Assembly: GCA_965215635.1 (NCBI GenBank)
Contig: CBDCEA010000004.1
Span: forward strand, 48,492-112,491
Origin: Alphaproteobacteria bacterium
Lineage (GTDB): Bacteria > Pseudomonadota > Alphaproteobacteria > SP197
Reading direction: 5' to 3'
Length of the DNA: 64,000 bases
The position numbers and the translations under genes are program-made. This document shows, piece after piece, positions 2-57,269 of the stretch. A model generated the notes under the pieces. That model was given only the letters and a program-made list of their open reading frames with translations. It was not told where the DNA came from and ran no database searches. Within the stretch, counting starts at the first letter, position 1; each line of letters starts with the position of its first letter.

Positions 2-1306
2 ACGCTGAAGGCGGCACGGATTGGACCGTCCTCGCTCAAGGGCACACTCGCGTACGCCACACCAGGCGAGCGTCCCCGGATCGATACCCGCCTCCAGGGG
101 GACATGATCGTCCTCGATGCGATTGCCGCGGTCCTCGCCGGCCGGGATCCCGCTCGCTCCAACGGGGAGCTGGCGCTGGGCTTTCTCGATCATGTTGACG
201 GCCGCATCGACCTTGCGGCCGAACGCCTTCTCATCGCAGACGTGACACTCGATGGTGCCGTCGTCAAGGCAGCGGCCGAGGGTGGCGTTCTGGACCTCGA
301 GATCCTGTCGGGCCGGCTCTTCGGGGGACAAGCCCGGGTCCAGGGCTCGATCAGGACGGGCGTACCGCACCAGGCCGACTTCGGCCTGACGCTCAACAAT
401 GCCGATCTCGAAGAGATTCTGGGTAGCGCGGCAGGCACCGACAGCCTTTCTGGCCGGCTCGACTTCGATGTGAAGGGCCGGGCTGCCGGGCTCACCGGGC
501 GTGACCTGCTTGAGAGCCTCGCGGGCGAGGGGTCCTGGTCCGTGAGACGGGGCACGGTCAGGGGATTCGATTTTCGGGCGATCACCCAGTCGCTTGCCGG
601 TCCTGGCGACGAGGCCGCCATTGCGGCGCAACTCGCCGAGTCGACCGGCAGCGGGACCACGGGTATCGTGGCGATCGACGGAACCTTCGCAATCGACAAG
701 GGGGTCGTCCGGTCGAGCGAACTCTCCGTGATCTTCAATGGCGCCGAAGGCGATTTCCATCTCGATGCCGATCTGCCGCGCTGGTGGGTGAGCCTGGCGG
801 GATCGGTGGTGCTGACCGGCAGGTCCGGCCTACCTGTCATCGCCATGGCCGTCAACGGTCCGATCGGCGAGACGGACCTGGTCGTTGATACCCGGTTGCT
901 GGAGGATCATCTGGTCAAGAGCTCGGTGCCGGAGAGCATCCCCATACCGAACGACAAACCTCCGGCGGAGACCGACGCGGTGCTCCACGAGGATGACGCT
1001 CATCGCGAGCTCGCCGAGGAAGTGGAAGAATCCGGTCCGCCCGTCGTCGAACCGGACGACACCGACGCGCTCATTCCCGACGTCGTCGAGGAAACCGGGA
1101 CGCCCCAGGACCCGGGCGCCAACGTCGGATCATCCCTGCTTTCGGTGCTGGGTGGCGGGATCGATGAGACGCCGGCGGCTTCTCAGCCGGAAGAGGAGGA
1201 GACCGGTCCGTCTTCGGGCGGGCTGCTCGACATGCTCTCGAGGGACGACGATCCGGCAGCGTCCGGCGACGACGCCAGCATCCTTCGCGTGTTTCAGGAT
1301 CCTTGA
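2..1306 (+). CDS. AsmA-family outer-membrane biogenesis protein, C-terminal portion (reading frame open to window edge; 5' end missing)
   Basis: Frame 2 is open from nt 2 with no stop. AsmA-like C-terminal region with an acidic Pro/Glu/Asp-rich tail. The ORF track starts at an internal Met (104). Confidence 0.45.
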   Translation, partial: TLKAARIGPSSLKGTLAYATPGERPRIDTRLQGDMIVLDAIAAVLAGRDPARSNGELALGFLDHVDGRIDLAAERLLIADVTLDGAVVKAAAEGGVLDLEILSGRLFGGQARVQGSIRTGVPHQADFGLTLNNADLEEILGSAAGTDSLSGRLDFDVKGRAAGLTGRDLLESLAGEGSWSVRRGTVRGFDFRAITQSLAGPGDEAAIAAQLAESTGSGTTGIVAIDGTFAIDKGVVRSSELSVIFNGAEGDFHLDADLPRWWVSLAGSVVLTGRSGLPVIAMAVNGPIGETDLVVDTRLLEDHLVKSSVPESIPIPNDKPPAETDAVLHEDDAHRELAEEVEESGPPVVEPDDTDALIPDVVEETGTPQDPGANVGSSLLSVLGGGIDETPAASQPEEEETGPSSGGLLDMLSRDDDPAASGDDASILRVFQDP

Positions 1307-1384
1307 GACTCCGGTACTTCATATTCTCTCCAACGGGACATTTTTTTCTTGACCACGATTTTCTTTGTCCCCATGGTGGCGCCA

Positions 1385-1403
1385 TTGATAATCATTCGCA
1401 ATC
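1385..1403 (+). promoter_or_regulatory. Fur-box-like motif (TTGATAATCATTCGCAATC) 15 nt upstream of the fbpA start
   Basis: Matches the GATAATGATAATCATTATC Fur consensus at about 13 of 19 positions. A near-identical motif sits upstream of fumC (5583-5601). Confidence 0.35.
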
Positions 1404-1417
1404 TCGAGGAGACGACG

Positions 1418-2443
1418 ATGGCCCCACGGTTTCTGTCAACCGCGCTCGTTGGTGCAGCGTTGCTGGCCTGGTCGCTACCGGCTTGGGCCCAAGGGGAGGT
1501 CAATCTCTACACGGCGCGTCACTACGATACCGACACCCAACTCTACGAAGCCTTCCGCGAAGCCACCGGGATCATCGTCAACGTGATCGAGGACAAGGCC
1601 GGTGCGCTGATGGAACGCATGAAGATCGAAGGCCAGAACAGCCCGGCCGATATCTTCATGACCGCCGATGCCGGCAACCTGATGTCAGCGGCTGGTGACG
1701 GCCTTCTTCAGGGAATCGTGTCGCAGGAGCTCGAATCGCGGGTTCCCGCCAATCTGCGCCATCCGGATGGCCTGTGGTTCGCCTTCACGAAGCGGGCCAG
1801 GGTCATCATGGTGCGCGAGGGCGTCGATACGACGGGTCTCGAACGCTACGAGGATCTCGCCGATCCTCGCTTCGCGGACATGATCTGCATCCGTTCATCC
1901 GGCAACATCTACAACCAGTCGCTCGTGGGATCCCTCATCGCCGCCAATGGCGAGGAGGCAACCGCGCAATGGGTTCGGGGACTGGTGGCCAACATGGCAC
2001 GCGAGCCTGAGTCGAACGACACGGGCCAGATCATGGCGGTGGCTGCCGGCGAATGCGAAATCGGCGTTGCCAACACCTACTATCTGGCACGTCTGATGCG
2101 TTCCGACGACCCGGCAAAGCGCGAGGTCGCGAGCGCCATCCGGGTCATTCTGCCGAACCAGGACGATCGCGGTGTTCACGTCAACATCTCCGGTGCCGGT
2201 GTGGCGGCACATGCGCCGAACCGCGACAATGCCGTTGCCTTCCTCGAGTTCCTGGCGAGTGGCGAGGCACAGCAGGCCTTCGCGGAAGGCAACAATGAGT
2301 GGCCGGTGGTCGCGGGCATCACGCACGCGAACGTGCTCGATGAACTCTATGGAGATTTCGTGGCCGACGGTGTCGATGCGGCGGTATTCGGGGCCAATCG
2401 GTCCCCGGCGCTTTCAATCATGGAAGAGAACGGCTGGAAATAG
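1418..2443 (+). CDS. fbpA: Fe(3+) ABC transporter periplasmic substrate-binding protein (FbpA/AfuA family)
   Basis: Signal peptide MAPRFLSTALVGAALLAWSLPAWAQG. Family-typical motifs EVNLYTARHY, ADIFMTADAGNL and NTYYLARL. ATG at 1418 sits in the low-GC leader after the Fur-like box. Confidence 0.85.
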   Translation: MAPRFLSTALVGAALLAWSLPAWAQGEVNLYTARHYDTDTQLYEAFREATGIIVNVIEDKAGALMERMKIEGQNSPADIFMTADAGNLMSAAGDGLLQGIVSQELESRVPANLRHPDGLWFAFTKRARVIMVREGVDTTGLERYEDLADPRFADMICIRSSGNIYNQSLVGSLIAANGEEATAQWVRGLVANMAREPESNDTGQIMAVAAGECEIGVANTYYLARLMRSDDPAKREVASAIRVILPNQDDRGVHVNISGAGVAAHAPNRDNAVAFLEFLASGEAQQAFAEGNNEWPVVAGITHANVLDELYGDFVADGVDAAVFGANRSPALSIMEENGWK

Positions 2444-2452
2444 GCGTTCTCG

Positions 2453-4132
2453 TTACTGGCGGGGTCGCGCGGAACCGGGCCTCGACCGCGTGATCCCGCT
2501 TGAAAGCAGGATCACCGGCAGGATTCCCGCCACCACGATGGCGAGTGCCGCCGTCGAGGCCTCGGCAAGCCGTTCGTCGGCTGCGAGCCTCCATGTCCGG
2601 GTGGCGAGGGTCTCGAAATTGAACGGTCGGACCAGGAGTGTGGCCGGAAGCTCCTTCAGGACATCGACGAAGACCAGCAGGCCGGCTGTCATCAGGCTTC
2701 CGCGCAGCAGCGGACCGTGGATTTGGGCCAGTGTCGACCAGGGTCCGCGGCCGAGCGTCCTCGATGCACCGTCCATCATGGGTGTCACCCTGGAAAGTCC
2801 CGCGTCGGTACTGTTGTAAGCCACCGCCAGGAACCTCACCGTGTAGGCGAAGAGCAGTGCCGCTATCGATCCGGTCAGAAGAAGGCCGGTCGAAACGCCG
2901 AAGCTCGCCTTCATGAATGCGTCGAGGCGGTTGTCGAACCAGGCAAGGGGAACGAGGACACCGACCGCGATCACCGAACCCGGAATGGCATAGCCCATGG
3001 AGGCGACACGGGCGGCGACCGTCGGCAGCGGCCCCGATGCCATGCGCGCGCCGTACCCCAGGACCACGGCGGCCGTTACCGCCAGGACGGCAGCAAGGGC
3101 CGCGACCATGATCGAGTTGCCTGCGTACGTCAGGAACGACGAGCCTGAAAGCGTATCGCCTCCCTCGATCGAGAGATGAAGGAGAATGGATGCCGGAACA
3201 GCGAAACCAAGCAGGACCGGCAGGGCCGTGGCGATGAAGGCACCCCAGGCCTTCATGCCCCCGAGCTGGAGACGTGGCAGGGGCTGGAAGCGGCCGGTGT
3301 TCGCCGCATAGCGGGCCTTGCCCCGCGAAACCCTCTCCAGCATGAGCACGACGAGGACGAAGAAAAGCAGGATGTTGGCTAGCTGCGCGGCAGTCTCCGG
3401 CGAGCCTCTGATGAACCATGTCCGATAGATTCCCGTCGTGAATGTCTGGACCCCGAAGAACTCGACGGTTCCGAAGTCGGCCAGGGTTTCCATCAGGGCG
3501 AGTGCTAGTCCCGCCACAATGCCCGGCCGCGCCATGGGAAGGGCGACGCGCAGGAATGTCGACCACGGACCGAACCCCAGGGTCCGGGCGACGCCCATTG
3601 CCTGGACCGATTGGGAAAGGAACGAGGTGCGCGCCAGGAGATAGACATAAGGGTAGAGCACCAGCGAGAGCATGGCGACGGCCCCGGCGGTGGAGCGTAT
3701 CTGTGGGAACCAGTAGTCGTGGCGTTCCCAGCTTCCCAACTCCCTGAGCCAGGTCTGTACCGGCCCGGCGTATTCGAGGAGGTCCGTATAGGCGTAGGCA
3801 AGCACATAGGCCGGAGCGGCGAAGGGGAGCAACAGGGCCCATTCCATGAGACGGCGCCCGGGAAACTCGCACATCGTGACAAGCCAGGCGGTCCCCGCAC
3901 CGATCGTGCCCGCAACAATGGCGACTCCGGCAAGCAGCACGGCGGTGTTGACGACATAGACCGAGAGTATCCGTCCGGCGATCCCGGCCCAGACCTCGCC
4001 GCTGCCGGTGAAGAGGTTCGAGACAACGGCGAAGACGGGGAGCGACACGAGACCCGCGACCGCCAGTGCTGCCGCCAGGAGCAGCGGCCCTCCCCTGATG
4101 GAGAGACGGTGTCTTGCTGCCGGCAGGGTCAC
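2453..4132 (-). CDS. fbpB: Fe(3+) ABC transporter permease, duplicated-domain FbpB type
   Basis: 559-aa polytopic membrane protein with two permease repeats. GTG start overlaps the fumC stop (GTGA). Convergent with fbpA. Confidence 0.85.
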
Positions 4133-5532
4133 GCTTTTGACGGTCGGACCATGTCGGCGGGCCTCACCCAGGAATCGAAGTCCTCGGCGCTGACGAGGCC
4201 GAGCGAGACCGCGGCGTCCTTCAGGGTCGTAGCTTCGGCATGCGCCTTCTTCGCGATCTTCGCGGCATTGTCGTAGCCGATGTGGGGATTGAGGGCCGTC
4301 ACCAGCATCAGCGAGCGCTGCATCATCTCCTCGATGCGATTCCTGTCAGCCTCAATGCCGGCGACACAGCGGTCCGTGAAACTCGCCGAGGCATCACCGA
4401 GAAGACGGGCGGAGCGCAGCACGTTGAAGACCATCACGGGCTTGAAGACATTGAGCTCGAAGTGTCCCTGTGCACCCGCGATCGTGACGGCTGTGTGGTT
4501 GCCCATGATCTCGGCGCAGACCATGGTGAGCGCCTCGCACTGGGTGGGGTTGACCTTGCCCGGCATGATCGAGCTTCCCGGTTCGTTGGCCGGCAGCAAG
4601 AGTTCACCGATGCCGCTGCGCGGGCCCGACGCCAACAGCCGGATGTCGTTCGCGATCTTGTTGAGGCTCACCGCGATGACATTGAGCGCTCCGGAGACCT
4701 CGACCATGGCATCGTGGGCTGCGAGGGCTTCGAACTTGTTGTCCGCCGTGACGAAGGGAAGGCCGGTCATTGCAGCAACGCTCCTGGCGAACGCGGTGTC
4801 GAATCCGGCCGGGCTGTTGAGTCCGGTGCCGACGGCGGTGCCGCCCATGGCGAGACGCAGGAGTCGGGGCATCGTTCCCCTGACGCGTTCGATTCCGAGT
4901 TCCACCTGCTTGGCGTAGCCCGAGAATTCCTGACCCAGTGTCAGCGGTGTCGCGTCCTGGAGATGGGTCCGGCCGATCTTGACGATGTCCCCGAACCCCC
5001 TTGCCTTGGCGTCGAGGGCCCCGTGAAGACGTTCGAGAGACACCAAGAGTCGCCTGTCGATCTCGATGGAGACGGCGATGTGCATGGCCGTCGGGAAGCC
5101 GTCGTTGGACGACTGGCTCATGTTGACGTGATCGTTGGGGTGGACCGGTGACTTCGAACCGAGCTCACCCCCGAGGAGCTCGATCGCGCGGTTGGCGATG
5201 ACCTCGTTGACATTCATGTTCGTCTGGGTGCCCGATCCGGTCTGCCAGACAACAAGCGGAAAGTGATCGCTCAGCCTGCCATCGATCACCTCGTCAGCAG
5301 CCTGCCGGATTGCTCCTGCCAGCTGCGGGTCCAGCCGTCGCGCCGACTCATTGACCTCGGCTGCCGTCTTCTTGACGTAACCGAAGGCCCGGATCAGCTG
5401 ATCGGGCATCCGTTCGGATTGACCGCCGATCGGGAAATTCTCGAGCGACCTCTGGGTCTGGGCTCCCCAGTACCGCTGGGAAGGAACGTTGATGTCCCCG
5501 ATGGAATCGGATTCGATACGGTAATCGGACAT
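4129..5532 (-). CDS. fumC: fumarate hydratase class II
   Basis: N-terminus [29 protein letters not shown] and the [16 protein letters not shown] signature loop. 467 aa. Confidence 0.9.
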
Positions 5533-5582
5533 GGGCGGATCCCGGTCTGCACGGCTGCCTCAATAGCACATCTCGCCGTGCC

Positions 5583-5601
5583 TGCGAACGATTCTCAATT
5601 G
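5583..5601 (-). promoter_or_regulatory. Fur-box-like motif (minus strand CAATTGAGAATCGTTCGCA) upstream of fumC-fbpB
   Basis: Shares the core ATTGAKAATCRTTCGCA with the motif upstream of fbpA. Lies about 50-70 nt upstream of the fumC start. Confidence 0.3.
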
Positions 5602-5614
5602 TCCCGGATTCGCC

Positions 5615-6070
5615 CTATTTCCTGCGGAAGGTATCGAGGGAGACAACGGTTCCGGCAGCGCTCTGCTCACCGGCGGTCGTGTCCTCGGTGGGCGCGTCTT
5701 CCCCGTCACTCCCATCCGGGGTCACCCTGAAGTTCAGTCCGAATTTGACGCTCGGATCGGCAAACGACGTGATCGCGGTCCAGGGAACACCGAGCTCGTG
5801 GGGCATGCGGTCGAACGAGAGGCCGATGGAGAAGCCCTCGTCGCCGACCTCGAGGTTCCAGAACTGATTCTGGATCACGATCGTGATTTCCTCGGGATAC
5901 CGGGCCTTCAGGGCCTTCGCAATTCTCACGCCGGGATGGTCCGTGCGGAAGGTGATATAGAAGTGATGGTCGCCGGGCAGGCCATCGCCCGCCGCGATCT
6001 CGAGGGCATGGGTGACGACGCTGCGCAACGCGTGATCGACCAGCAGTCCATAGTGGATCGATTCGCTCAT
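5615..6070 (-). CDS. sspB: ClpXP protease specificity-enhancing factor SspB (alphaproteobacterial type)
   Basis: Collinear with Caulobacter SspB-alpha: GEHHFYITF, IVLQHQFW-like IVIQNQFWNLEVGDEGFSIGLSF, and an acidic unstructured tail. Confidence 0.75.
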   Translation of the reverse strand: MSESIHYGLLVDHALRSVVTHALEIAAGDGLPGDHHFYITFRTDHPGVRIAKALKARYPEEITIVIQNQFWNLEVGDEGFSIGLSFDRMPHELGVPWTAITSFADPSVKFGLNFRVTPDGSDGEDAPTEDTTAGEQSAAGTVVSLDTFRRK

Positions 6071-6093
6071 CGGACGCCCGGGACGGTGAAGCA

Positions 6094-6131
6094 GGAAAAA
6101 GCGGAGGGCTTCTGTTGCCCGGTGCCCTCCG
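6094..6131 (-). terminator. Intrinsic-terminator-like hairpin (GGAGGGC/GCCCTCC stem then a T5 run on the minus strand)
   Basis: Read on the minus strand: GGAGGGCACCGGGCAACAGAAGCCCTCCGCTTTTTCC. Downstream of lipoprotein copy 1, about 25 nt upstream of the sspB ATG. Confidence 0.45.
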
Positions 6132-6391
6132 AACCGCGCTTTCCGCTTATGCAGCGATAGCGTACGCCTCGTTGTCGTTGGCGATTGTATGTTTGACCCG
6201 ATAACGGCGGAATCATACCGGACGAAAACCGAACCTTTACCACGCGCGTCGATCCTGGTTCGCCCCCATAAGGTTTATGGTGGAGGCGGCGGGTACTGCC
6301 CCCGCGTCCGCAACGTCTATTCCGAGCGGCGTTTATCGCCATAGCCCAGCAAGCCGGGCAACCGTTCATATAGTGCATCCGCACACCACTT

Positions 6392-7090
6392 TCAACCGTT
6401 GACGTCATCTGGTCCCGTGACCAGGCCGACTCTGCCCACCGCCACAATGAACGCTTGAGCGGCCCCCCGAAACTGGACGCCAGGTCCTTCGACGGCACCG
6501 ATTCGTGCCGCCTCGCGTTGCCTCTCGAACTCACGCAGTTCGGCGTCGCGCGCTTCGTCGATAGCGCGCGCCAGCGACTCGCAATCCTGCCAGTTCTCAT
6601 CACAAGACTGCCCCAACTCCATCGCCGCCTCTGCAGCCTCCCGCTCGATCCGTGTCCTCTGACGGTCGAAGAACGCATCGCGTTCGTTGGCATTGGAGAA
6701 CTCCTTTGGCACGAGAACAATCGTGACGCTCTCTGGATATTCGTTCATCACGCCCGAACTTGCATCGATCACCACGCCGATAACGCCCCCCAAAATAATG
6801 TTGCCAAACGTCATTGCCTGGAAGTCTGAAGAAAGGGAAGCGGCCCCATTGAAATACCTGTCCTTCTCACAAACAATGCTGATGTTATCCTTGCTTTTTT
6901 CTATCGATACCGTTCCCGGTGTGGGGTTCGCTACAGCGACCACCGAACCGTCCCGGGACAAGGTGCAGACAGCGTTCGGTGGTTCGGTAAGTACCGTCAC
7001 GGTCTGGTCGGTGCCCTCGATGATCGTCGCGCAGGCTCCCAGTACAAGCAACAAGGGGAGTATGCCCGTTACGGCCCACCGATGTTGCAT
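6392..7090 (-). CDS. Hypothetical lipoprotein (copy 1); carries a 31-aa C-terminal extension relative to copy 2
   Basis: Signal peptide with lipobox LVLGAC. Paralogous to the 17703-18308 protein. The stop position of copy 2 reads GGA here. Confidence 0.55.
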   Translation of the reverse strand: MQHRWAVTGILPLLLVLGACATIIEGTDQTVTVLTEPPNAVCTLSRDGSVVAVANPTPGTVSIEKSKDNISIVCEKDRYFNGAASLSSDFQAMTFGNIILGGVIGVVIDASSGVMNEYPESVTIVLVPKEFSNANERDAFFDRQRTRIEREAAEAAMELGQSCDENWQDCESLARAIDEARDAELREFERQREAARIGAVEGPGVQFRGAAQAFIVAVGRVGLVTGPDDVNG

Positions 7091-7116
7091 TGTCCCCCCC
7101 AGGTGCCGATATCAGC

Positions 7117-7164
7117 TCGCGAGACGATTCGTGTATCACGTCGCGAGACGATTCGTGTATCACG
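7117..7164. repeat. Perfect 24-bp tandem duplication (TCGCGAGACGATTCGTGTATCACG x2) just upstream of the lipoprotein copy 1 start
   Basis: Two exact adjacent copies. Copy 2 of the module has a single copy of the unit. Confidence 0.85.
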
Positions 7165-7767
7165 TGCGAGGATTTCCCATATGGCGACCTTCAGCCAGGT
7201 CGAGCGTGGCCCGGGATCGTTCAACGGGCGAGCCCGATGGGTTCTGCCACCATGCTCATGCCCGACACCGCAAAATCAGAGAGTCAACGGGACATGGTGG
7301 CATGCGGTATTGCCGGTCGTCTTCTCGCATGAGGGGCGATCCTGTCGTCATGTTGGGAGGTGCGTCGTTCTGAGGCGATCGATCCAAACACCCGACAGGT
7401 CGCTCAAACTCCAAGTTGTGTCATTCCCATGCGTCGAAGGACGCGGCGCGCGAACCGAGCCGTGTCCTGGTCCCGGCGCATTGCTGGTGGAGAGCGATAT
7501 CCTCCTGCGTGCACTGTCCGGTACCGCATGGTCACCCCTGCCTTCAGGCAGGGTTCCAGGATCCTCTGGATGAATCCTCACGCGCGTTATGTTCATGTTG
7601 ACGGACCTCCGTCGATGTCCGCCTTGCGAGCCCGGACGATACCGGAAACGCTCGGGCCGCCAAGGCCTTGACCACTGGAAACAACTCTCACCGAACAGCG
7701 CCGGAAGAGAGCTGACGCGAGCTGCGCAATTCAGCGTGCCGGAGGCGATAGCAGTATTCATCCGAGG

Positions 7768-8427
7768 TCATGGTGTACGGTTCATTATACGAAGGTGCCA
7801 GTCGCCCCAGTCCGCCCCCCCTTCGAACGCTGGATTTCGGCCTGTGCAGGCCGCTTCACCGTTCGGTTCCAGTTCGCAATCGGCGATGCCGCGATAAACG
7901 TAGGACCCGTCGGTGCAATACATATCTTCCCTGTCGTTGATCTGAAGCATTCCGCTCTCGAGATAGGTTGCCCACACTTCTCCTTCGCACTCCACGCCGT
8001 CAGTCATCACCAAGTGCTTTTCACCGTTGCCGTTCTCGTCGAAACACATTTCCAGTGATGCGACCTCAGTCACCTCATGTGTTTCGACGTCTTCCACGCT
8101 GAAGTCCGAAGCAAGAGACCAGCAGCCCTCGAGCGACGAAAGATCCTTCTGCGCCCACTTCTCCGCATCCAGCATGTCCGGGTCCGGTTCAGGTGGCGGT
8201 TGCAGTTCGGCGCGCAGTTCCGGAGGTGGTTGCAGTGGAAGATGGGGCGGGCAGGCGGGAAGTCCGACGAGGTGCCTCTCGAGTCCGCGCAGCCTGTCCT
8301 CGAGAACTGCGAGCCGTTCCAGTTCCTTCTCCAGTTCCGCCGCCATGGCGACATTCACTCTCATTGCAGCACTTTCAAAGGCGGCATTCAGCCTCAGGTC
8401 CTCAGGCTGGCGCGGCGTCGCCTGCAT
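7768..8427 (-). CDS. Hypothetical protein with coiled-coil, Pro-rich linker and Cys-rich C-terminal domain
   Basis: Lower-GC patch. The ORF reads protein-like from MQATPRQPEDLRLNAAFESAAMRVN onward. No recognisable family. The start is uncertain (8427, 8364 or 8349). Confidence 0.35.
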   Translation of the reverse strand: MQATPRQPEDLRLNAAFESAAMRVNVAMAAELEKELERLAVLEDRLRGLERHLVGLPACPPHLPLQPPPELRAELQPPPEPDPDMLDAEKWAQKDLSSLEGCWSLASDFSVEDVETHEVTEVASLEMCFDENGNGEKHLVMTDGVECEGEVWATYLESGMLQINDREDMYCTDGSYVYRGIADCELEPNGEAACTGRNPAFEGGADWGDWHLRIMNRTP

Positions 8428-8439
8428 CACCTGGCACAA

Positions 8440-9316
8440 GAACTTCAATGGCGAGGACTGGCCCCGCGATGCCTTCGGCACATGCGTGGTGCCGATCCAC
8501 GGCCCCGCAGAGACTGGATCGGCGACCGTCCGGCTGGCCGAGAAGCGTATCAGGCTGAGGACAGGGCTCGAGGTGCGCCAGATCCGACGCCTTCTCGACA
8601 ACGGGCGCCAGGTGCCATTGATCACCACTCACCCCGCGATGCCGATGGAAGAGGTCGCCGGCTCCATGTTCTCGCGCTGGTCCCAGGAGAACTTCTTCAA
8701 GTACATGCGCGACGCGTTCAACCTCGACGCGCTGCCGGACCACGCGCTCGAGCCGATCGATCCTGACGCCCGGGTCGTCAACCCCGCCCGCAGGACTGTC
8801 GAGAAGACCATCGCCACAGTCCGGTCGCGTCTCAAGAGCCTCCATCTGCGCATCGTCAGGGCGACGAAGAAGGGCAGGCCCATCGACGATCTCGTGGCCG
8901 GGGTCGGCGCCCTCGATGAAGAACTCGAGGCGTTCAAGGAGCAACGCAAGGACCTGCCGCGCCATGTTCGCGCCGGCGACCTCCCGGAGAACCAACGGCT
9001 CGACGCCCTGCCGGTCGCAAGGCGCCTCCTCCTCGATGTCATCCGCATGATGCCACCCGTGATCGAGGCACAGGGCAAGAAATCCAATGCCCGCAAATTG
9101 CTCGCAGCGCTGATGACGGCCGACGCCAACATCCTGCCGGATCCCGGAAACGGCATCCTCCGGGTCCAGATCCTGGGTCTTGCCAGGAACGCAGTCGACC
9201 AGGCGCTCCTGCCGTTGATCGATGAACTCAACCAGACAGAAACCGTCTGTCCGGGTACCAGCCTCCGCCTCGTCTACGAAATGGCAGGCACTTCACCCCA
9301 CAATGAGGTCACCTGA
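8440..9316 (+). pseudogene. C-terminal remnant of a DDE transposase (IS4/IS701-like signature)
   Basis: SRWSQENFFKYMRD fits the YREK-region motif R-x3-E-x6-K followed by a long tail. The N-terminal catalytic region is absent. The upstream part of the ORF is GC-rich nonsense overlapping the opposite-strand gene. Confidence 0.35.
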
Positions 9317-9768
9317 ATTGGACGAGGTCAGGAAGTCTGAGCCTGTCGAATAAGCTCATCGCCAAGTCATGACGCGAGCAGGGCAGGATTGGTTCCTGTC
9401 TTTCGGCGAGGCTGTCAACCGGAAACTGTTATGCCTTCCGGTCTCTTCCGTTGAGGATTTGCAAACGCCTTTGCCCCGAAATGGGTGAAATCCTGCAAAT
9501 TGGGTCGATGACATGAAACGGTAAGGCCAAGACTGGTCGCGGTCGCCGTTTGCGCGGTGACATCGAGCGTCCCGGCGTGGGCCATCTGGTGGTGGCTCGC
9601 GCATAACGGGTGAGCGCGGCGGACGGCGGTGCGCTGCGCAGCAGGGAAGGTGCTGCGAAACGCAGGCCGGGTGGACGGTGCAAGGGAAACCGGCAGGTCT
9701 GAGGGCAGGGTTGACAACAGACTTGTTGCCAACGATATTGATGCCAACAAAACCGTTGGAATAAAGAC

Positions 9769-11020
9769 ATGATCCGAAAAGGCGGAAGCAACTGGGTCGA
9801 CGGAGAGAACTTCTTCGATCGCGAGACGGAACTGGAAGCGCTGGAAGAGCGGGTGCGGGAAGGAACCCACACCCTGCTGACCGCACAACGGCGGATGGGC
9901 AAGACCAGCCTCGTGCGGGAGCTGCAGCGCCGCCTGGCCGAAACGGGAGACTTCGAGGTCGTCTTCGTCGATCTGGAGGCGGCCACCGATCCGGCCGATG
10001 CGATTGCTGAAATCGGGGTTCAGGTGAAGCCCGTGCGTGCTGCGTGGAATCATGACCGGCTTCGCGAATCTGGTGAGGAGCGCCGGCGGCCGGATCGAGG
10101 AACTGTCGGTTGCGGATCTGAAGGTGAAGCTGCGCGCCGGGATCGATGCAGGCAATTGGCCGCAAAGAGGTGACGCGATCTTTGCCGCCCTGGCGGAAAG
10201 CGGTCGGCCGGTCGTGCTCGCGATAGACGAGTTGCCGATTCTCGTAAACCGGCTGCTGAAGGACGAGACGGGGCGCATGACGCCGGAGGGGAAGCGGGAA
10301 GCAGACGCGTTCCTGAGCTGGCTGCGCAAGGTGGGGCAGTCCCATCGGGATCGGGTCACGCTGATCCTGTCGGGCAGCGTGAGCCTCGAGCCGCTGCTTG
10401 AACGGGCCGGGCTCAGCGCCCAGGCCAATATCTTTTCTCCCTACGACCTGAAACCGTGGAGCGAGGAAACGGCCGTTTCCTGCCTGGAGGCACTTGCCGA
10501 GTCGTATGAGGTAGGTCTTGCGCCGGAGGCCCGCAGGGACATGTGCCGCAGGCTGCGTTGCTGCATCCCGCACCATGTCCAGATGTTCTTCGACAGGATG
10601 CACGATCATCTGCGGCGCGCCGGGCGGAAGGACGCCTCGCCGGAAGATGTCGAATGGGTCTATGTGCGAGAGATGCAGGGCGTCCGGGGGCAGGTCGACC
10701 TGCAGCATTACGAGGGCCGGCTGGAGACGGTCCTCGGAAGAGCGGGGTACACGGTTGCGCTGGAGATTCTGACGGCAACGGCGGTCGACGGCGATATCGC
10801 CGCTGAAACGGTCGACCGGTACCGCAGCTGGTTCTCAACGCGCGACGCGCACGACGGAGACGGTGCTTCCGCGGTCGATCATGTGCTGCGCGTGCTGCAG
10901 CACGACGGCTACCTCGAACCCGGGGACGGCGGTTACCGGTTCGTTTCCGGTCTGCTCGAGGATTGGTGGCGGGCGCGCTACGGGCAGAGGTTCGTGCCCG
11001 TGTTCGACCGGCAGCGGTAA
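9769..11020 (+). pseudogene. PF01637-like (archaeal-type) AAA ATPase, interrupted by a +1/-1 frameshift near 10025-10037
   Basis: Frame 1 carries FFDRETELEALEERVREGTHTLLTAQRRMGKTSLVREL (Walker A). Frame 2 from 10028 carries Walker B VVLAIDELP and the rest, about 417 aa if repaired. The frame 1 continuation after the shift is Arg-rich nonsense. Confidence 0.55.
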
Positions 11021-11037
11021 GAACGGGAGTCGGGCCG

Positions 11038-14000
11038 ATGGCTGTGACCGCCAGGAAGTACAATCCGGGCTTTCTCTCGATCGACGAACTGGTCGCGACC
11101 TTCTGCGTCCGGACGGCCGAGTACGAATCCCTGATCGAGGCGCTGCGCGAATGCTCGGGCAGCGCCAACACCCATCAGATCGTGATCGGGCCGCGCGGCA
11201 GCGGAAAGACGAGCCTCCTGCTGCGGGTCGCTGCGGAGGCGCTGCGCGATGCCGATCTCTCGGCGCGCTTCTTCCCGATTGTGTTCGCGGAGGAAAGCTA
11301 CGAGGTCTCGACCGCCGGCGAGTTCTGGCTCGAATGCCTTTCCCGGCTGGCCGATCAGGCGCCGCGCCGGGAAGGCGGTGTCGACTTGCAACGCACCTTC
11401 GAGGAGCTGCGCACCGTCCATGACGACCGGGCGCTGGAAGATCGGTGCCTCGGGGTGCTGCAAGACTTCGCCGACCGGGAAAAGAAGCGCGTCGTGCTGA
11501 TCGTCGAGAACCTGAACATGATGTTCAGGGACATGGGCGACGACAATGCGGGCTGGCGGCTGCGTAAGGCGCTGCAGACCGAACCGCGGATCGTTCTGCT
11601 GGCGAGCGCGACCAGCCGGTTCGACCAGATGAACGATCCGAAGGAAGCGCTCTACGAGCTCTTCCGGGTGATCCGGTTGCGTCCCCTCGACACGGAAGGC
11701 TGCGCGACCTTGTGGCAGACAGTGTCGGGGCAGGCGCGGGCGCCGCAGACGATCCAGGCGCTGCGGATTCTCACTGGCGGCAGTCCCAGGCTGCTGACCA
11801 TCGCCGCCCGTTTCGGCGCGAACCTGTCATTCCGCGAGCTGATGGCCGATCTTCTCGATCTGGTCGATGACCATACCGAGTATTTCAAGAGTCACCTCGA
11901 TGCGCTCCCGGCGCAGGAGCGAAAGGTGTATCTCGCCCTTGCCGATCTCTGGAAACCGGCGAACGCGCGCGAGATCGCGGACCGGGCCAGGCTCGGGACC
12001 AGCAAATGCAGTGCTCAGCTTGCCCGTCTGGTCGACAAGGGCGCTGTGGAAGTGACCGGCGGCAGCGCGCGGCGCAAGCTCTATTACCTGACCGAGCGGC
12101 TCTACAACATCTACTACCTGATGCGCCGGGCGCGCGGACCGGCGCCGCTGATCGATGCGCTGATCCGTTTCATGGAGGCCTACTACTCCACCGACGAGCT
12201 GAGGGAGTTCGGCGCCCGCATGGCGCGGGAAGCGCTGGGGTTCGACGGCGGTGCGTTGGCGATCTACCGGATGGCCTTCGAGCGTCTTGTCGGACTGCCG
12301 TCCCTCGAAGCGCACCGCGAGGAGCTGCTTTCGCTAGCGTCGCCTGCCTTTGCGTATGCGCCCAGTGAGTTTTCTGCGGTATCCCCGGCACTGTCGGCCG
12401 CGAGGGAGCTCTTGGGGAAAGCGCTGGCGCTCGCGGAAAGCGGTCGGTTGCAGGACGCCGTGGCGGCCTGGGACGAGGTAATCCGGAGGTTCGGGGCAAG
12501 CGATGCGCCGGCGGATCTCGAACAGGTGTCGCTGGCGCTCGTCAACAAGGGGAAGGCGTTGGGCGGGCTGGGAAGAGCGGAAGAAGCTCTGGCCGTGCTG
12601 GACGACGTGGTGCGGCGTTTCGGGGTGGACAACGGAGAAGGCCACCCTCTGGCGGTGGCGACGGCGCTCGCCGGCAAGGGCGGAATGCTGAGCAACCTGG
12701 ACCGCCACACGGAAGCGCTTACAGCCTGGAAGGAGGTCGCGCGGCGCTTCGGCAAGAGTCGGGTGCCGGCGCTCGAGGTGCTGGTGGTGAACGCGATGAT
12801 CGGGACGGCGGTCGCGCTGAACACGTTGAACCGGCACCGGGAAGCCCTGCAGGCCTGCGACGAAGTGTTGGAACGCTTCGGCAAGAGCGGTTCGCCGGCG
12901 CTTGACGGTGAATTGGCGGCAGCCATGGTCGGACGGGGTCACGCGCTGATCGCGCTGGGCCGAGTCGATGAGGCGATAAGCGCCTGGGGTGCCGTGGTGG
13001 AGCGTTTCGGGAAGAGCGACTCTCTCAGAATCGTCGAACAGGTGGCCTCGGCGCTTGCGAACATAGGCACGGCGCTGTTCCAGGCGGGCCGGTTGGAGGA
13101 AGCGCTCGCCGCGTTCGATGGGGTCGTGCAAAGCTACACGGCAAACGATGCGCCGATCCTCCGGGAGGTGATAGCGCGCTGTTTCGTCAACAGAGGCAAC
13201 GTGCTGGCCGCGCTGAAGCGGGAAACGGAAGCGCTCTCGTCGTGGGAAGAAGCGATCAGGGGCTTCGAGGCGGGCGGTTTGCCGGAGGTGGCAGAACCGT
13301 TTTGCAACGCGCTGATGAACAGGGCGGCGGCGCTGCACCATGCGGGAAGGCCGGAGGAAGCGCTGGATATGTGGGGCGGCGTGGTGGAACGCTTCGGGGC
13401 CGACGACCGGCCCGCACTCCTCACCATGGTCGCGAATGCCCAGACTCACAGGGGCGCCTTGCTGGAACAGTTGGGCCGATACGAGGAGGCACTCGCGGTC
13501 TGGCAGGAGGTTGAAGACCGTTTCGGGAACAGCGACATGCCGGAATGGGTCGCGCTGATCGCAAGCTGCTTCCAGCACAGGTGCGCCGACCTGTTCGAGC
13601 TGAACCGGACGGAAGAGGCGCTCGCAACGTGCGACCGGGCGATCGACCGATTCGGGCAAAGCCCCGTACCGGCGGTTCTTGAGACAGTCGCGGGGATATT
13701 TCTGAACAAGGGAATCGTGCTCGTCACTGCACACAGGAACGAGGAGGCGCTGGCGGTCTGGGACGAGATCGAACGGCGTTTCGGAAACAACTACGAGCCG
13801 GAAATTTTGAAGCACGTTGCCTCGGCCCTCGTCAGCAAGGGTACGACGCTGGTCCATATGAACAGGGCGGAGGACGCGGTTGGGGTATGGGGCGACGTCG
13901 TGCGCCGGTTCGGGGAGGGCGACTCACCCCTGTATCACGAGGAGATTGCGACGTCTGTCCTCAACAGGGTGGTGGTGCTGGGCTTGTTGAACCGGCCGGA

Positions 14001-14670
14001 CGAGGCGCTTGAGGCCTGTGACGAGGCGCTCCGGCGATTCGGGAGCGGTGAAGACCCTTACGGTGTTGAGGCAGTCGCACAAACTCTCGTTAGTAAGGGT
14101 TCGCTCCTTGCCGGTCTGGACCGGACCGAGGAGGCGTTCGCTGCGTGGGACGAGGTTGTCCGGCGCTTCGAGGCGAGCGATGAGCCGGCGCTTCGCGACG
14201 CGGCGGAATCGGCGCTGTGCCGGCGGGCACAGCACGAATTGACCGAAGGCCGGGCAAGGGACGCCGTCGCGTTTCTCGACCGTGCGCTGCTGCAGGGGCG
14301 GGCGGGAATTCCAGACAGCAGACTGCAGGGCCATCTGATCCGGGCCCGGGCGCACTTGGCGGAAGGCGATGGCGAAGCATGCGCCGGGGATGTCGAGACG
14401 ACACTGTCGATCCTTCCCGAATTGAACATGTTGCCGAGGGACGTGCTGGTGGCTCTGGCCGATCTCTCGGCGGGTGTCGGGCTGGAGAGGATGTGCGGTC
14501 TGATCAAGTCGTCGCCCGCTGACGATCTCCTGCTTCCGTTGAGGACGGCGCTGGAGCGCGAACTTGGGTTGGAGCCGAGGGTGGCCAGGGAAGTCGAAGA
14601 GATTGCCGAAGACATACGCCGGGAATTGCTTGTCGGGCGCAAGACTGAGGAGCAACGACGGACGGCTTGA
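11038..14670 (+). CDS. P-loop NTPase (PF01637/STAND-like) fused to a ~620-aa array of ~14 tandem 44-aa TPR-like repeats
   Basis: Walker A GPRGSGKTSLLL, Walker B-like VVLIVENLN, sensor-like RIVLLASATSRF. Then repeats of the pattern EEALAxWDEVxxRFGxSDxPxxxExVAxALxNKGxxL. SD GGAG sits 8 nt before the ATG at 11038. 17 nt downstream of the preceding ATPase. Confidence 0.7.
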   Translation: MAVTARKYNPGFLSIDELVATFCVRTAEYESLIEALRECSGSANTHQIVIGPRGSGKTSLLLRVAAEALRDADLSARFFPIVFAEESYEVSTAGEFWLECLSRLADQAPRREGGVDLQRTFEELRTVHDDRALEDRCLGVLQDFADREKKRVVLIVENLNMMFRDMGDDNAGWRLRKALQTEPRIVLLASATSRFDQMNDPKEALYELFRVIRLRPLDTEGCATLWQTVSGQARAPQTIQALRILTGGSPRLLTIAARFGANLSFRELMADLLDLVDDHTEYFKSHLDALPAQERKVYLALADLWKPANAREIADRARLGTSKCSAQLARLVDKGAVEVTGGSARRKLYYLTERLYNIYYLMRRARGPAPLIDALIRFMEAYYSTDELREFGARMAREALGFDGGALAIYRMAFERLVGLPSLEAHREELLSLASPAFAYAPSEFSAVSPALSAARELLGKALALAESGRLQDAVAAWDEVIRRFGASDAPADLEQVSLALVNKGKALGGLGRAEEALAVLDDVVRRFGVDNGEGHPLAVATALAGKGGMLSNLDRHTEALTAWKEVARRFGKSRVPALEVLVVNAMIGTAVALNTLNRHREALQACDEVLERFGKSGSPALDGELAAAMVGRGHALIALGRVDEAISAWGAVVERFGKSDSLRIVEQVASALANIGTALFQAGRLEEALAAFDGVVQSYTANDAPILREVIARCFVNRGNVLAALKRETEALSSWEEAIRGFEAGGLPEVAEPFCNALMNRAAALHHAGRPEEALDMWGGVVERFGADDRPALLTMVANAQTHRGALLEQLGRYEEALAVWQEVEDRFGNSDMPEWVALIASCFQHRCADLFELNRTEEALATCDRAIDRFGQSPVPAVLETVAGIFLNKGIVLVTAHRNEEALAVWDEIERRFGNNYEPEILKHVASALVSKGTTLVHMNRAEDAVGVWGDVVRRFGEGDSPLYHEEIATSVLNRVVVLGLLNRPDEALEACDEALRRFGSGEDPYGVEAVAQTLVSKGSLLAGLDRTEEAFAAWDEVVRRFEASDEPALRDAAESALCRRAQHELTEGRARDAVAFLDRALLQGRAGIPDSRLQGHLIRARAHLAEGDGEACAGDVETTLSILPELNMLPRDVLVALADLSAGVGLERMCGLIKSSPADDLLLPLRTALERELGLEPRVAREVEEIAEDIRRELLVGRKTEEQRRTA

Positions 14671-14689
14671 TCGTTTCAGTCAGAGTCGA

Positions 14690-14899
14690 CCCGACATGCC
14701 GGACGATCCATGGCCAATCGACTTCGCCGAGCGGTGCATGGACGGCAACGAGCCGGACGCGGTGAACGATGCGGGACAGCAGGATGGTCATTGCCTGGCT
14801 GTCCTTGCCACCGATGGTGTTGATCGCCACGAAGGCTCCGGCCCGGATCATGTCCCGGCAGTCCGAAGGGACACGGATGTCGGCGAGGTCGGTGGCCAT
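14690..14899 (-). pseudogene. N-terminal fragment of a PAPS-reductase-like PP-loop protein, truncated where it meets the 3' end of the NTPase-TPR gene
   Basis: MATDLADIRVPSDCRDMIRAGAFVAINTIGGKDSQAMTILL carries the SGGKDS PP-loop. The reading frame then runs into the convergent 11038-14670 gene, so only ~70 aa are present. Confidence 0.4.
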
Positions 14900-15345
14900 G
14901 GATGGGTCTCCCAGTTGGCGGTGCGGGGGTCACACTCCGGCCCCAGGCGTCGCCCGGAGGACGTCGGCCGCCACCTCCGGGGGGCGTGCTACTCGGAACC
15001 GGAAGACCTACTCGTTGGATGAAGCGCACCGTCCGGGGCCGTCCCGGGGACGCGGGGCCTGGATTCCCGAAGGGGCGGAATCCGTGCTACCTCTAAGACC
15101 GCTTCGGCCCCCTTTCGGCCGGGAGCAGCGACAACGGGCGGGCAGCGAGGGACATGGGGTTGAAACCGGGCGATGTCGATGCGATGACGGGTGCTGGCGG
15201 GAGCTTCTCTGGATGGAACAACCAATTGAGGGAACGCTACGGGTCAGGCACGTCAGACTCGGGTCGGTGCACGGCGCTCGGCAAAACAAACAGAAACGCT
15301 GCAGAGGTGACAACGATGCTAGAAAACCAGCATATCGTTTCAGAT

Positions 15346-16338
15346 AGGAACCAGTATCGAGAGCGGCTCGAAGGCTACCTCGAAACGGTTCTTCAGCTCG
15401 GTGTTTCCTTGCAGGACTAGGACGGGCACGAGACGCTGCCTGTCTTTCTGACCCGACTCTACCGGTTCTTCGAGACTCGGATCGGTCAGTCGCCGCTTCT
15501 CTTCATGTCTGCGAGGCAAACCGGGGAACACACTCCGGCAGAGATCGCGAAGCACCTTGATCTGGCGAAGCCGGAGTTCGACGGAATAGTCGTCTATTCA
15601 GCCGAACGAATTGCTGCGGGCTTTCGCGCACGGCTTGTTGCAGCTGGCGTGGCCTTCGCCGTTCCCGGCAATCAGCTGTTTGTTCCGGAACTCGCAACGG
15701 ACTTGCGCGAGCATTTCAGGGGGCCGAAGCCGGAGCGGCCCGACAAGCTATCGCCATCGGCTCAACTGGTTCTGTTTTTCCACCTCCTCCAAGGTGAGCA
15801 GGCGCGGTCATGGACGCCAACCGAGCTCACAGAACCACTTCGGTATTCGATCATGACCATGGGCCGGGCTTTTGATGAGCTTGCCGCCGTCGGACTTGCC
15901 CGGATCGAGCGACGTGGCCGCAAGAAGCTCTTGTGGTTCCGCGCGGAGGGGCGCTTGCTGATTGATACTGCAAAGACGCTCCTGATTCGTCCTGAACGTC
16001 GGCTAGACCACATTCGCTGGCTGAAGGAGCCGCCTGATTTGCCGCTGGCTGGCGAGCATGCCCTCGCGCGGCTCAGCGATCTCAGCCCGCCAGCGGTGCC
16101 ACCGGTTTACGCAGTGACGCCGGAACAGATGCGAGATTTCCTCGCGGTTGGGTGGGCGGATCTGAGGGAGGCGGACTACGACTCGGACGGAACACTTGCG
16201 ACTTGGCGATACGACCCGCAGGTATTGTCACGGAACGATTTGGTCGATCCGCTCTCTCTCTTCGCACAGTTTTGGGATGACCCCGACGAACGCTTGTCCA
16301 TGGCCGTCGATCGACTGCTGGAGCGATGGACATGGTGA
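15346..16338 (+). pseudogene. AbiEi-like wHTH antitoxin candidate, interrupted by an in-frame TAG at 15418-15420 (alternatively an intact 277-aa product from ATG 15505)
   Basis: Frame 1 is open 15154-16338 except for a single TAG. Sequence on both sides of the TAG reads protein-like (MLENQHIVSDRNQYRERLEGYLETVLQLGVSLQD / DGHETLPVFLTRLYRFFETR). There is a low-GC leader before ATG 15346. Winged-helix segment SIMTMGRAFDELAAVGLARIERRGRKKLLWF. The last 13 nt overlap the downstream gene. Confidence 0.4.
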
Positions 16339-16974
16339 GAGGGCTTGACCGGTTCCGAGAGCATTTCGCCGGGCACGAAGAAAGCTATGCGCTGATTGGC
16401 GGTGCTGCCTGCGATATCCTCTTCGGAGAAGCCGGGCTTCCGTTTCGGGCCACCAGGGACTTCGACATTGTGCTATGCGTCGAGGTCGTCAGTGCCGAAT
16501 TTGGCACGGGCTTTGCAGATTTCCTGGAAGCAGGTCGATATCGGGCCAGGGAGCGCTCGACCGGCAGGCGGGAATTCTCCCGCTTTCATCGCCCTGCAGA
16601 CGAAACGTTCCCGGCAATGATTGAACTCTTCGCCCGACGACCGGATACACTGAATAAGCCTTATCGACGAGACGATCCTTATCCCGTTTAAAGCACGTGC
16701 TTTTCTCGATCCTTCCGGACGCAAGGCGAATGGCGAAGACGTTGATGCCCGGCACATACGAAAGCACCGCGCTGATGTGTTCCGGCTCGCCCAGCTGTTG
16801 CCGGGCAGCGGCAACCTGCCCCTCGCCGACCCCTTACGGGCTGACCTGGCCGCGTTTCTCGATCAGGTCGCAAGCGATCCGGACTTCGATTACAAGGCGT
16901 TAAAGCTACCACTGCCGCTGGCGGATGCGACGGCAATACTGGATGGGTACTATCAGCTCAGCTCTTCTGCCTAG
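16326..16974 (+). pseudogene. AbiEii-type minimal nucleotidyltransferase toxin candidate, frameshifted near 16654-16691
   Basis: The N-terminal frame has the NTase motif LIGGAACDILFGEAGLPFRATRDFDIVL (hGG...R.T.DFD). After the stop at 16691 the protein continues in another frame from 16654: ISLIDETILIPFKARAFLDPSGRKANGEDVDARHIRKHRADVFRLAQLL... to 16974. Confidence 0.5.
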
Positions 16975-17217
16975 ATCGTGCCCCGCAGACTGGTGTGCAC
17001 TCATCGGCAAAGGACGGCAGCATTGCGGGTCTTGTATGAGGTTGCCTTCGCTGCATTGAATGGTTGCGAGTAACGGCCCTGTTCTGGACGCCTGATAGCG
17101 CTTTTGTTGCCTGGATGGTTCGTATCCTGTGGAGACCGGGATCGAAGACGCAACCCTCAGCGACGCGGAATCTGGAGGCGCCCGGACGACTGATATTTTG
17201 CCGCGGTTCCGATTGAA

Positions 17218-17597
17218 CACAGGCTTGTGCACATCCAGAGCATGCGTCTTTCCTCCACAGAATCCGCCAGCGCATGCCTTTTCTGGCCGACTGGCGCATG
17301 CTCTGCCTTCGGAAAGTTCACTGACGTGATGAAGCTGGTTGCTCCGGGCGTGCCCGGGAGTCAGACCGCATGGAGGCAAGGGTCGATCGAACGGAGTAGG
17401 GCGTCAGGATGATAACCGCGGACCAGCGCGAGCAGATCAGAACGCAGCGTGCCTCAAGGAACGATAACCGGCGTGTCGTCAGCCTGGCGCTGGAGGAGAT
17501 CCTGTACGAACCCATGGCGGTGCTCGATCACGGTTTCGTGCGTGTCGTCGACTACATGGGCAATGACGATGCCATCGTGCAGGCGGCCCGCGTGTCA
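17218..17597 (+). pseudogene. Displaced 5' fragment of thyX (promoter region plus first ~63 codons); ~85% identical to 20226-20620
   Basis: Nucleotide alignment with the intact thyX 5' region. Homology stops abruptly at 17597, where the lipoprotein module begins. Confidence 0.6.
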
Positions 17598-17602
17598 CAC
17601 GT

Positions 17603-18590
17603 AGTTCATCCGCTCATCCGCACACCACTTGCAACTGTTGAAGGCTCCTGGCCATCATCACAATGAACGCCTGAGCGGGGCTGCCCGAAACCTGACACCA
17701 GATCACTCGGCAGCGCCGATTCGAGCCGCCTTACGCTGCCTTTCAAGCTCACGCAGTTCGGCGTCGCGCGCTTCCTCGATAGCGCGTACCAGCGACTCGC
17801 ACTCCTGCCTGTTCCCTTCACAAGACTGCTGCAACGTAGCCACCATCCCAGCGGCCTCCCGCTCGATCCGTGTCCGCTGGCGGTCGAAGAACGCATCGCG
17901 GTCGTTGGCGGTGGAGAACGCTTCCGGCGCGAGAACAATCGTGACGCTGGCCGGGTATTCGTTCATCGCACCCGAGCTTGCATCGATGGCCAGGCCGATA
18001 AAGCCGCCGATAAGAATGTTGCCAAACGTCATTGCCTGGAAGTCTGAAGAAAGAGCAGCGGCGCCATTGAAGTACCCGTCCTTCTCACAAATGATGCCGA
18101 TGTTATCCTTGCTTTTTTCTACCGATACCGTCCCCGGTGTAGGATTCACCACAGCGACCGTCGCTTCGTCCTGGGACAAGGTGCAGACAGCGTTCGGTGG
18201 TTCGGTAAGTACCGTCACGGTCTGATCGGTGCCCTCGACGATCGTCGCGCAGGCTCCCAGAACAAGCGACAAAAGGAGTATGCCCGTTACGGCCCACCGA
18301 TGTTGCATTGCACCCTCCAGGTGTCGATATCTGCTCGCGAGACGATTCGTTTATCACGTGTAACCAGGATTTCCCATGTGGCACCCTTCAGCCAGGTTGA
18401 GCGTGGCCCGGGATCGCTCAACGGGCAGGCCCGATGGGTTCTGCCACCATGATCATGTCCGACACCGCGAAATCAGAGAGTCAACGGGACATGGTGGCAT
18501 GCGATATTGCCGACCCTGTCGTCATGCTGGAGAGGGGCGTCGGCCCGAGCCGGTCGATCCAGACACCCGCCGGGTCCGCGAAGGCGACGT
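17603..18590. repeat. Copy 2 of the duplicated lipoprotein module
   Basis: About 85% nucleotide identity to 6362-7410. The left boundary coincides with the thyX-fragment junction. Confidence 0.8.
17703..18308 (-). CDS. Hypothetical lipoprotein (copy 2, 201 aa)
   Basis: Signal peptide plus lipobox LVLGAC. Paralogue of the 6392-7090 protein. Confidence 0.55.
   Translation of the reverse strand: MQHRWAVTGILLLSLVLGACATIVEGTDQTVTVLTEPPNAVCTLSQDEATVAVVNPTPGTVSVEKSKDNIGIICEKDGYFNGAAALSSDFQAMTFGNILIGGFIGLAIDASSGAMNEYPASVTIVLAPEAFSTANDRDAFFDRQRTRIEREAAGMVATLQQSCEGNRQECESLVRAIEEARDAELRELERQRKAARIGAAE

Positions 18591-43611: not shown

Positions 43612-45568
<1,957 letters not shown>

Positions 45569-55230: not shown

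Positions 55231-57269
<2,039 letters not shown>

Follow-up and report, generated by a model that had tools for sequence, protein, structure and literature searches.

Predicted Fur operators ahead of fbpA and of a tightly linked fumC-fbpB pair in an uncultured alphaproteobacterium

Fur-controlled fumC genes, encoding the iron-free class II fumarase, are already known (PMC3377617, PMC3055841 and the main text of PMC1698941), as are Fur-controlled fbp genes for ferric-iron uptake. In Pseudomonas, which has several fumarases, fumC is induced by iron starvation and belongs to the Fur-repressed operon fagA-fumC-orfX-sodA (Hassett et al. 1997; Polack et al. 1996; as summarised in PMC3377617). Under iron limitation, Acinetobacter baumannii expresses fumC 27-fold more strongly and its class I fumarase 9-fold less (PMC3055841). 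The main text of PMC1698941 describes the repression of alternative iron-free isozymes by iron regulators, and predicts repression of fumC by RirA in Rhizobium leguminosarum, R. etli and Brucella melitensis under the heading of an 'Alternative isozymes' strategy. The same text defines a Fur-alpha box for Rhodospirillales, Caulobacter and Sphingomonadales and places fbpABC among the commonest predicted Fur-alpha targets. The present analysis concerns a 64,000-nucleotide stretch of DNA from an uncultured alphaproteobacterium (contig CBDCEA010000004.1 of assembly GCA_965215635.1; the whole stretch is called the window), in which fbpA, encoding a periplasmic iron-binding protein, converges on a fumC-fbpB pair encoding fumarase C and an iron permease. 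Both fbpA and fumC are preceded by motifs that are predicted Fur-family operators, of the Fur-alpha type of non-rhizobial alphaproteobacteria.

Among the closest described systems is the Caulobacter Fur regulon, whose operators share with the window sites a 19-bp 9-1-9 inverted repeat and the pattern TGCGA...TCTCAAT/TCGCAAT (PMC2724300 and the main text of PMC1698941). The window sites ATTGCGAATGATTATCAAT and CCTGCGAACGATTCTCAAT can be compared directly with ATTGCGAACGATTATCAGT, ATTGCGAATAATTATCATT and ATTGCGAACGTTTCTCAAC from Table 3 of PMC2724300. Ferric-iron fbp transporters are core predicted targets of Fur-alpha and are represented here too, but fumC is not on the listed targets of Caulobacter Fur (PMC2724300), nor is it named as a Fur-alpha target in the main text of PMC1698941. 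Binding has been validated in Caulobacter, whereas in the uncultured, Rhodospirillales-like lineage considered here it is predicted. As summarised in PMC3377617, the Pseudomonas operon likewise sets an iron-free class II fumarase behind a Fur box together with a gene useful under iron limitation, although the partner there is a Mn-superoxide dismutase and here an iron-uptake permease joined by a 4-nt overlap. The RirA-fumC prediction resembles this locus in placing an alphaproteobacterial iron regulator 5' of fumC and in being read as an alternative isozyme; it differs, in the main text of PMC1698941, in its Rrf2-type regulator, its TGA-N9-TCA motif and the lack of a linked transporter gene. 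With the fbpABC/hitABC/futABC systems the locus shares a FutA-type binding protein and a fused 12-helix permease, but the operon has been dismantled, with fbpA convergent, fbpC off the locus in all 13 genomes that have this layout and fumC replacing fbpA ahead of fbpB. Synechocystis is a known case of scattered fut genes. A full-text literature search combining fumC and fbpB yielded, by title and abstract, only work on other organisms, and PMC3377617 describes no such operon. The fumC-fbpB unit thus appears to be undescribed, and what is new is its composition and clade-restricted history rather than the regulatory principle. It is a modest variant, and the current understanding of iron regulation is unchanged by it.

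The predicted fbpA operator (ATTGATAATCATTCGCAAT, 1384..1402, plus strand) is a Fur-alpha-type inverted repeat lying over the predicted transcription start region, and the predicted fumC-fbpB operator (ATTGAGAATCGTTCGCAGG, 5581..5599, minus strand; CCTGCGAACGATTCTCAAT on the plus strand) overlaps a putative -35 hexamer, TTCGCA. Read on the opposite strand, the fbpA site is ATTGCGAATGATTATCAAT. Both are 19-bp 9-1-9 inverted repeats and both contain the TGCGA element, mutation of which abolished Fur binding in Caulobacter (PMC2724300). An earlier note on this DNA had described two near-identical, Fur-like motifs located 15-70 nt 5' of start codons, and this description holds: the 17-mers ATTGATAATCATTCGCA at 1384-1400 (plus strand) and ATTGAGAATCGTTCGCA at 5583-5599 (minus strand) differ at just two positions (15 of 17 shared), and end 17 nt from the fbpA ATG (1418) and 50 nt from the fumC ATG (5532-5530), respectively. 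Its coordinates for the first motif, 1386-1402, need correction, by 2 nt to the left. The fumC motif sits within the 82-nt spacer between sspB and fumC. A degenerate 17-mer, ATTGAKAATCRTTCGCA, allowed up to three mismatches, matched twice in the 64 kb, on both occasions with none, against 0.35 matches expected by chance.

The Fur-like nature of the motifs, also proposed in that note, is borne out by their fit to the alphaproteobacterial Fur box as represented by Caulobacter sites. A weight matrix was built solely from the 27 Caulobacter Fur sites in Table 3 of PMC2724300, 11 of which were validated by gel shift, and its scores in the window were set against those in 40 sequences simulated from the window with a first-order Markov model. 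The fbpA site ranked first in the window (29.1) and the fumC site second (21.3), with the next match at 10.8; the best score in the 40 simulations was 20.2, so that none of them came up to 21.3. The training sites themselves score 15.8-27.2; the fbpA site exceeds them all and the fumC site lies near their median. At a threshold of 13, every match in approximately 150 kb of loci from related genomes lay 5' of fumC or fbpA. The window holds no additional sites and no other iron genes.

The gene products are consistent with iron uptake and an iron-free fumarase. The fbpA gene (1418..2443, plus strand) encodes a FutA/IdiA-type protein with a signal peptide, which matches the cyanobacterial FutA structures in PDB (6g7n, 1.1e-102; 2pt1, 8.5e-102; 2voz, 2e-92) and the Pfam families SBP_bac_6, 11, 1 and 8. 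The 559-aa product of fbpB (2453..4132, minus strand) is a fused two-domain permease of an ATP-binding cassette (ABC) transporter for ferric iron, with two BPD_transp_1 stretches and homologues named iron(III) ABC permease; its orthologues occur within fbpA-fbpB-fbpC operons of other lineages. FumC (4129..5532, minus strand) is assigned to the class II fumarate hydratases by TIGR00979 (748.2 bits against a cut-off of 664.75) and by the domains Lyase_1 and FumaraseC_C. The fumC stop and fbpB start codons overlap by 4 nt (GTGA), and the GTG is, by a reading of the sequence in this window, the sole in-frame ATG, GTG or TTG ahead of the first membrane helix of FbpB.

Searching reference genomes with FbpB gave 80 loci, of which 77, mostly from gammaproteobacteria, fall outside the layout seen in the window. 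In these 77 the usual order is fbpA-fbpB-fbpC, with an ATPase gene directly after fbpB in about 56, and classical Fur boxes such as AATGATAATCATTCTCATT lie ahead of fbpA in several gammaproteobacterial fbpABC loci. The remaining three (L001, L034 and L061), together with nine loci that were found by way of the nearest homologues of FbpB (L081-L089) and the window itself, make up a clade of 13 genomes. Its members are uncultured and labelled Alphaproteobacteria, Rhodospirillales or Rhodospirillaceae, with 66-82% FbpB identity; Skermanella, at 62% FbpB identity, does not have the layout. All 13 share the order sspB ... fumC-fbpB, a convergent fbpA and then asmA, with no fbpC. An ABC ATPase gene is lacking at this locus in all 13 genomes, and a cognate FbpC is therefore not encoded within the operon. 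The earlier note had remarked on the absence of an adjacent fbpC, which is now seen to hold clade-wide, on the GTGA overlap, which the coordinates of the two minus-strand genes (4129-5532 and 2453-4132) confirm, and on an implied co-transcription of fumC and fbpB. On the last point, fumC and fbpB are tightly linked throughout the clade, with either a 4-nt overlap or at most about 70 nt between them. Among other alphaproteobacteria with an orphan fbpB, crude open reading frame (ORF) calls upstream of it gave Pfam results that were unrelated or empty and hence uninformative.

The two boxes are distributed differently within the clade. The fbpA box is found in 12 of the 13 genomes (11 of the 12 relatives), the exception being L089, which has a degenerate palindrome only, and five genomes carry a second box immediately 5' of a -35-like hexamer. 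The fumC box is present in the window, L081, L034, L082, L061 and L083 only, these being the closest relatives, with at least 75% FbpB identity. It is degenerate in L084 and absent from L001 and L085-L089. In the five relatives that carry it, it scores 22-28 with the Caulobacter matrix, reaching 28.1 in L061 and L083.

Beside the boxes or overlapping them are conserved blocks that resemble -35 and -10 elements, and their assignment as promoters is putative. Ahead of fbpA, a hexamer TTGACC (1349..1354, plus strand) conserved in the clade is the putative -35 and CATGGT (1372..1377, plus strand), 17 nt further on, the putative -10. A TTG(A/C)C(A/C/T) hexamer lies 28-39 nt 5' of the proximal fbpA box in 12 of the 13 genomes, and at the -10 spacing the relatives show TAAAGT, TAATAT, TATGGT, TAGGGT or CAAAGG. 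The fbpA boxes thus keep a fixed position relative to the conserved -35, over the predicted transcription start. A consensus promoter scan chose a different fbpA promoter from that suggested by the alignment, namely TTGTCC-N16-GATAAT at 1365-1392, with its -10 inside the box. In the alignment of the sspB-fumC spacer, two islands are conserved, the box itself and, 12-14 nt downstream of it, a block of the form TGTGnT-A; in the window this block is TGTGCTATTGA (5560..5570, minus strand). Kindred blocks, TGTGCTAGTCA and GTGTTAGGCA, precede fumC in members of the clade that lack the box. Probably the fumC box overlaps the -35 element and the conserved block serves as an extended -10. The consensus scan yielded a single promoter match within fumC (4349-4322), with 0.8 expected by chance, and no terminators in the region; an internal promoter for fbpB at this position was not accepted, the number of matches being at chance level.

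The best explanation of the locus as a whole, held with some confidence rather than with assurance, combines Fur operators at both genes, derepression of fbpA and fumC-fbpB, and a later gain of the fumC box. When iron is plentiful, Fe2+-Fur dimers would occupy each 19-bp inverted repeat and block RNA polymerase at both genes. At fbpA, Fur would cover the predicted transcription start just 3' of the conserved TTGACC-N17 promoter, and at fumC its site would overlap the predicted -35, 12-14 nt 5' of the extended -10-like block. When iron is scarce, Fur would leave the DNA, the periplasmic FutA-type protein would be made from the fbpA promoter, and a single mRNA from the fumC promoter would give iron-free fumarase C and then the FbpB permease. 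Translation of FbpB would be coupled to the termination of fumC, because the permease start codon overlaps the fumC stop, and the ATPase would be supplied from elsewhere in the genome. Historically, an fbpABC-type operon may have been broken up within this clade, with fbpA inverted and its Fur box kept, fbpC moved away, and fbpB placed behind fumC. Later, in the subclade that includes the window, the fumC promoter may have gained a Fur box, which would have restored iron control to the permease and extended it to fumC. Of all this, the sequence features, how they are conserved and how well they agree with validated Fur sites are observed, and Fur binding, the sign of regulation, the promoters and the evolutionary sequence are inferred from them.

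Several observations weigh against this explanation. In 7 of the 13 genomes fumC-fbpB is kept without a Fur box ahead of fumC, and the linkage itself is therefore not explained by Fur control. It follows that the fusion did not arise as a Fur-co-regulated unit and that the operator was probably added later, in one subclade; the gene linkage is, on this distribution, older than its predicted Fur control. The promoter elements match the consensus weakly, and a fur gene is absent from the 64-kb window (no tblastn match to E. coli Fur had an E-value under 2.7). Caulobacter Fur also activates sdh, nuo and acnA (PMC2724300), and since it is thus an activator of some respiratory genes and genes of the tricarboxylic acid (TCA) cycle, the sign of regulation is uncertain from sequence alone. 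If FumC were the only fumarase, strong repression under iron-replete conditions would be harmful, a point in favour of control that is partial or weak, or of transcription that reads through from sspB. A predicted iron-repressor operator does stand before the gene for an iron-free isozyme (box 5581-5599), which is one feature of an isozyme switch. An iron-sparing switch from FumA to FumC would also call for a class I (Fe-S) fumarase encoded in this genome, and is best regarded as a candidate reading. A homologue of E. coli FumA is present in Azospirillum, a finding not tied to the genomes of the clade.

The main alternative, considered rather unlikely, is that the Fur sites are real but no iron sparing is involved. 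FumC would be the sole housekeeping fumarase, with fbpB riding on its promoter for constitutive, low-level production of the permease, and the box in the subclade would have been selected for fbpB, any effect on fumC being a tolerated by-product. The linkage that predates the box, and persists without it in the seven genomes, suits this alternative, as does the location of fumC at one conserved chromosomal position in all members of the clade, as for a core gene. Many alphaproteobacteria, moreover, have only FumC. Set against it, the fumC boxes of the relatives do not look marginal, as they reach the best fbpA-box scores (up to 28.1), and there is precedent for an iron-regulated fumC isozyme in Pseudomonas and Acinetobacter, with predictions for rhizobia in the main text of PMC1698941.

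A further proposal, that of regulatory capture, is possible and is put forward tentatively. The operon would have broken up, the orphan permease would have become coupled to a housekeeping fumC, and one subclade would then have gained a Fur operator, such that in these uncultured marine Rhodospirillales-like bacteria iron status gates the only fumarase and iron uptake. If this is true, iron status would control TCA flux as well as iron uptake. The clade offers a clean and datable example of a transcription unit being rewired, with the fusion in 13 genomes and the predicted operator gained in the 6 closest. Fur control of an iron-free fumarase, known in gammaproteobacteria, would be extended to a Fur-using alphaproteobacterial lineage. 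The comparison, in addition, flags a clade in which the genes of the ferric-iron transporter are dispersed, with fbpC elsewhere, and this matters for the annotation of iron uptake in marine metagenomes.

The preferred explanation, with Fur as the repressor, also has to be weighed against binding by another regulator or a chance match. Both are much less likely than Fur, given that the cargo is of FutA type and that the scores with the matrix and the pattern of conservation also speak against them. It is improbable that a different member of the Fur family (Mur, Zur or Irr) binds the sites, in which case the response would be to manganese, zinc or haem status. The Fur-alpha and Mur boxes are described as alike in the main text of PMC1698941, but according to the same text Mur substitutes for Fur in Rhizobiales and Rhodobacteraceae, and not in Rhodospirillales-type lineages. 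The fumC site agrees with the iron control element (ICE) of Irr at 12 of 16 specified positions (4 mismatches, by manual count), yet the ICE consensus, TTTRGAAYNRTTCYAAA, matches nowhere in the 64 kb even with three mismatches allowed. Irr, furthermore, acts at low iron, and a repressing position at the promoter of an enzyme that needs no iron would be hard to understand. The classical 19-mer Fur consensus of enterics and Bacillus likewise had no window match at up to three mismatches, and readings based on it or on ICE were dropped, since the alphaproteobacterial Fur matrix fits far better. The regulated transporter has a FutA-type iron-binding protein, and the scores of the sites lie inside or above the range of the validated Caulobacter iron-Fur sites, neither of which suits a regulator of another metal.

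A scan of metagenomes for the exact 16-mer TGAKAATCRTTCGCAA bears on the same question. It returned at least 120 contigs, with 121 occurrences among those listed, of which about 75 lie where all six frames are closed and are thus intergenic. Among the 128 ORFs flanking it on the listed contigs, the commonest Pfam families were the TonB-receptor Plug (6), Rrf2 (4), FUR (3), ZnuA (2) and FeoA (2), alongside which FeoB (1) and binding proteins resembling FbpA (2) occurred. These genes are the set expected around a predicted operator of the Fur family, although the ZnuA-family (Mn/Zn) binding-protein genes are a point in favour of a regulator other than Fur. FumC was encoded on none of the listed contigs, and a box 5' of fumC is therefore not common.

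That the fumC motif is a chance resemblance, conserved merely through the close kinship of its carriers, is very improbable: 1 of 20 mononucleotide shuffles did yield a match above its score with a matrix trained on the clade, and the carriers L034, L061, L082 and L083 are closely related with a generally similar intergenic region, but the spacer has diverged between the window and L081 on one side and the L034 group on the other while the box and the -10-like block were kept, no simulation with the independent matrix reached the score, and the site lies in an 82-nt intergenic region directly 5' of two paired genes, one of which encodes an iron permease.

The convergent fbpA and fbpB genes of the window have stop codons 9 nt apart (2443-2453), with no terminator-like hairpin detected between them, and as a consequence the two predicted iron-regulated transcripts would read into each other as antisense. 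Where the genes are directly adjacent in the relatives, the interval ranges from a 4-nt overlap (L089) to 19 nt. In L086 a gene for an MFS_3-family transporter (7684-9057), a family of the enterobactin-exporter-like type, separates fbpB from fbpA and has the orientation of fbpB, which suggests that more iron-related cargo may be carried on the same transcript. On the far side of fbpA lies the end of an AsmA-like gene (104-1306, plus strand).

Upstream of fumC, sspB (5615-6070, minus strand) is itself preceded, at 30 nt, by a two-piece, permuted alphaproteobacterial transfer-messenger RNA (tmRNA) gene (6100-6399, minus strand; Rfam RF01849, 247.8 bits; tag ANDNEAYAIAA), giving the order ssrA-sspB-fumC-fbpB on one strand (5615-6399 for the first two genes). 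SspB is the adaptor that brings tmRNA-tagged proteins to ClpXP. A 16-nt exact direct repeat, CATCCGCACACCACTT, occurs in the 5' part of the tmRNA gene (6376-6391) and again 11.2 kb away (17615-17630), with about 1e-3 such repeats expected. The DNA from the tmRNA gene to thyX (20347-21363) is approximately 14 kb longer than in L083 and L084, and contains a transposase gene (8027-9316) and a gene for a 1235-aa protein with AAA_16 and TPR domains (10963-14670). The region 6400-20300 probably represents a genomic island that has inserted into ssrA.

The other genes of the window are of a housekeeping kind, and include ilv and his genes, PBP2/RodA, two groEL genes, thyX and a polyamine potBC pair with its ATPase. 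The polyamine-type ABC transporter (57799-60806, plus strand) comprises potB-like and potC-like permeases and a PotA/PotG-type ATPase with a TOBE_2 domain (59709-60806, plus strand). This ATPase, the only one of the ABC type in the window, was considered as a distant fbpC and rejected, as it scores above the potA subfamily cut-off and is a neighbour of potBC. No binding-protein gene was seen between this transporter and groEL. The two Cpn60/GroEL-family genes (43612-45246 and 55231-57063, both on the minus strand) lie within 12 kb of each other.

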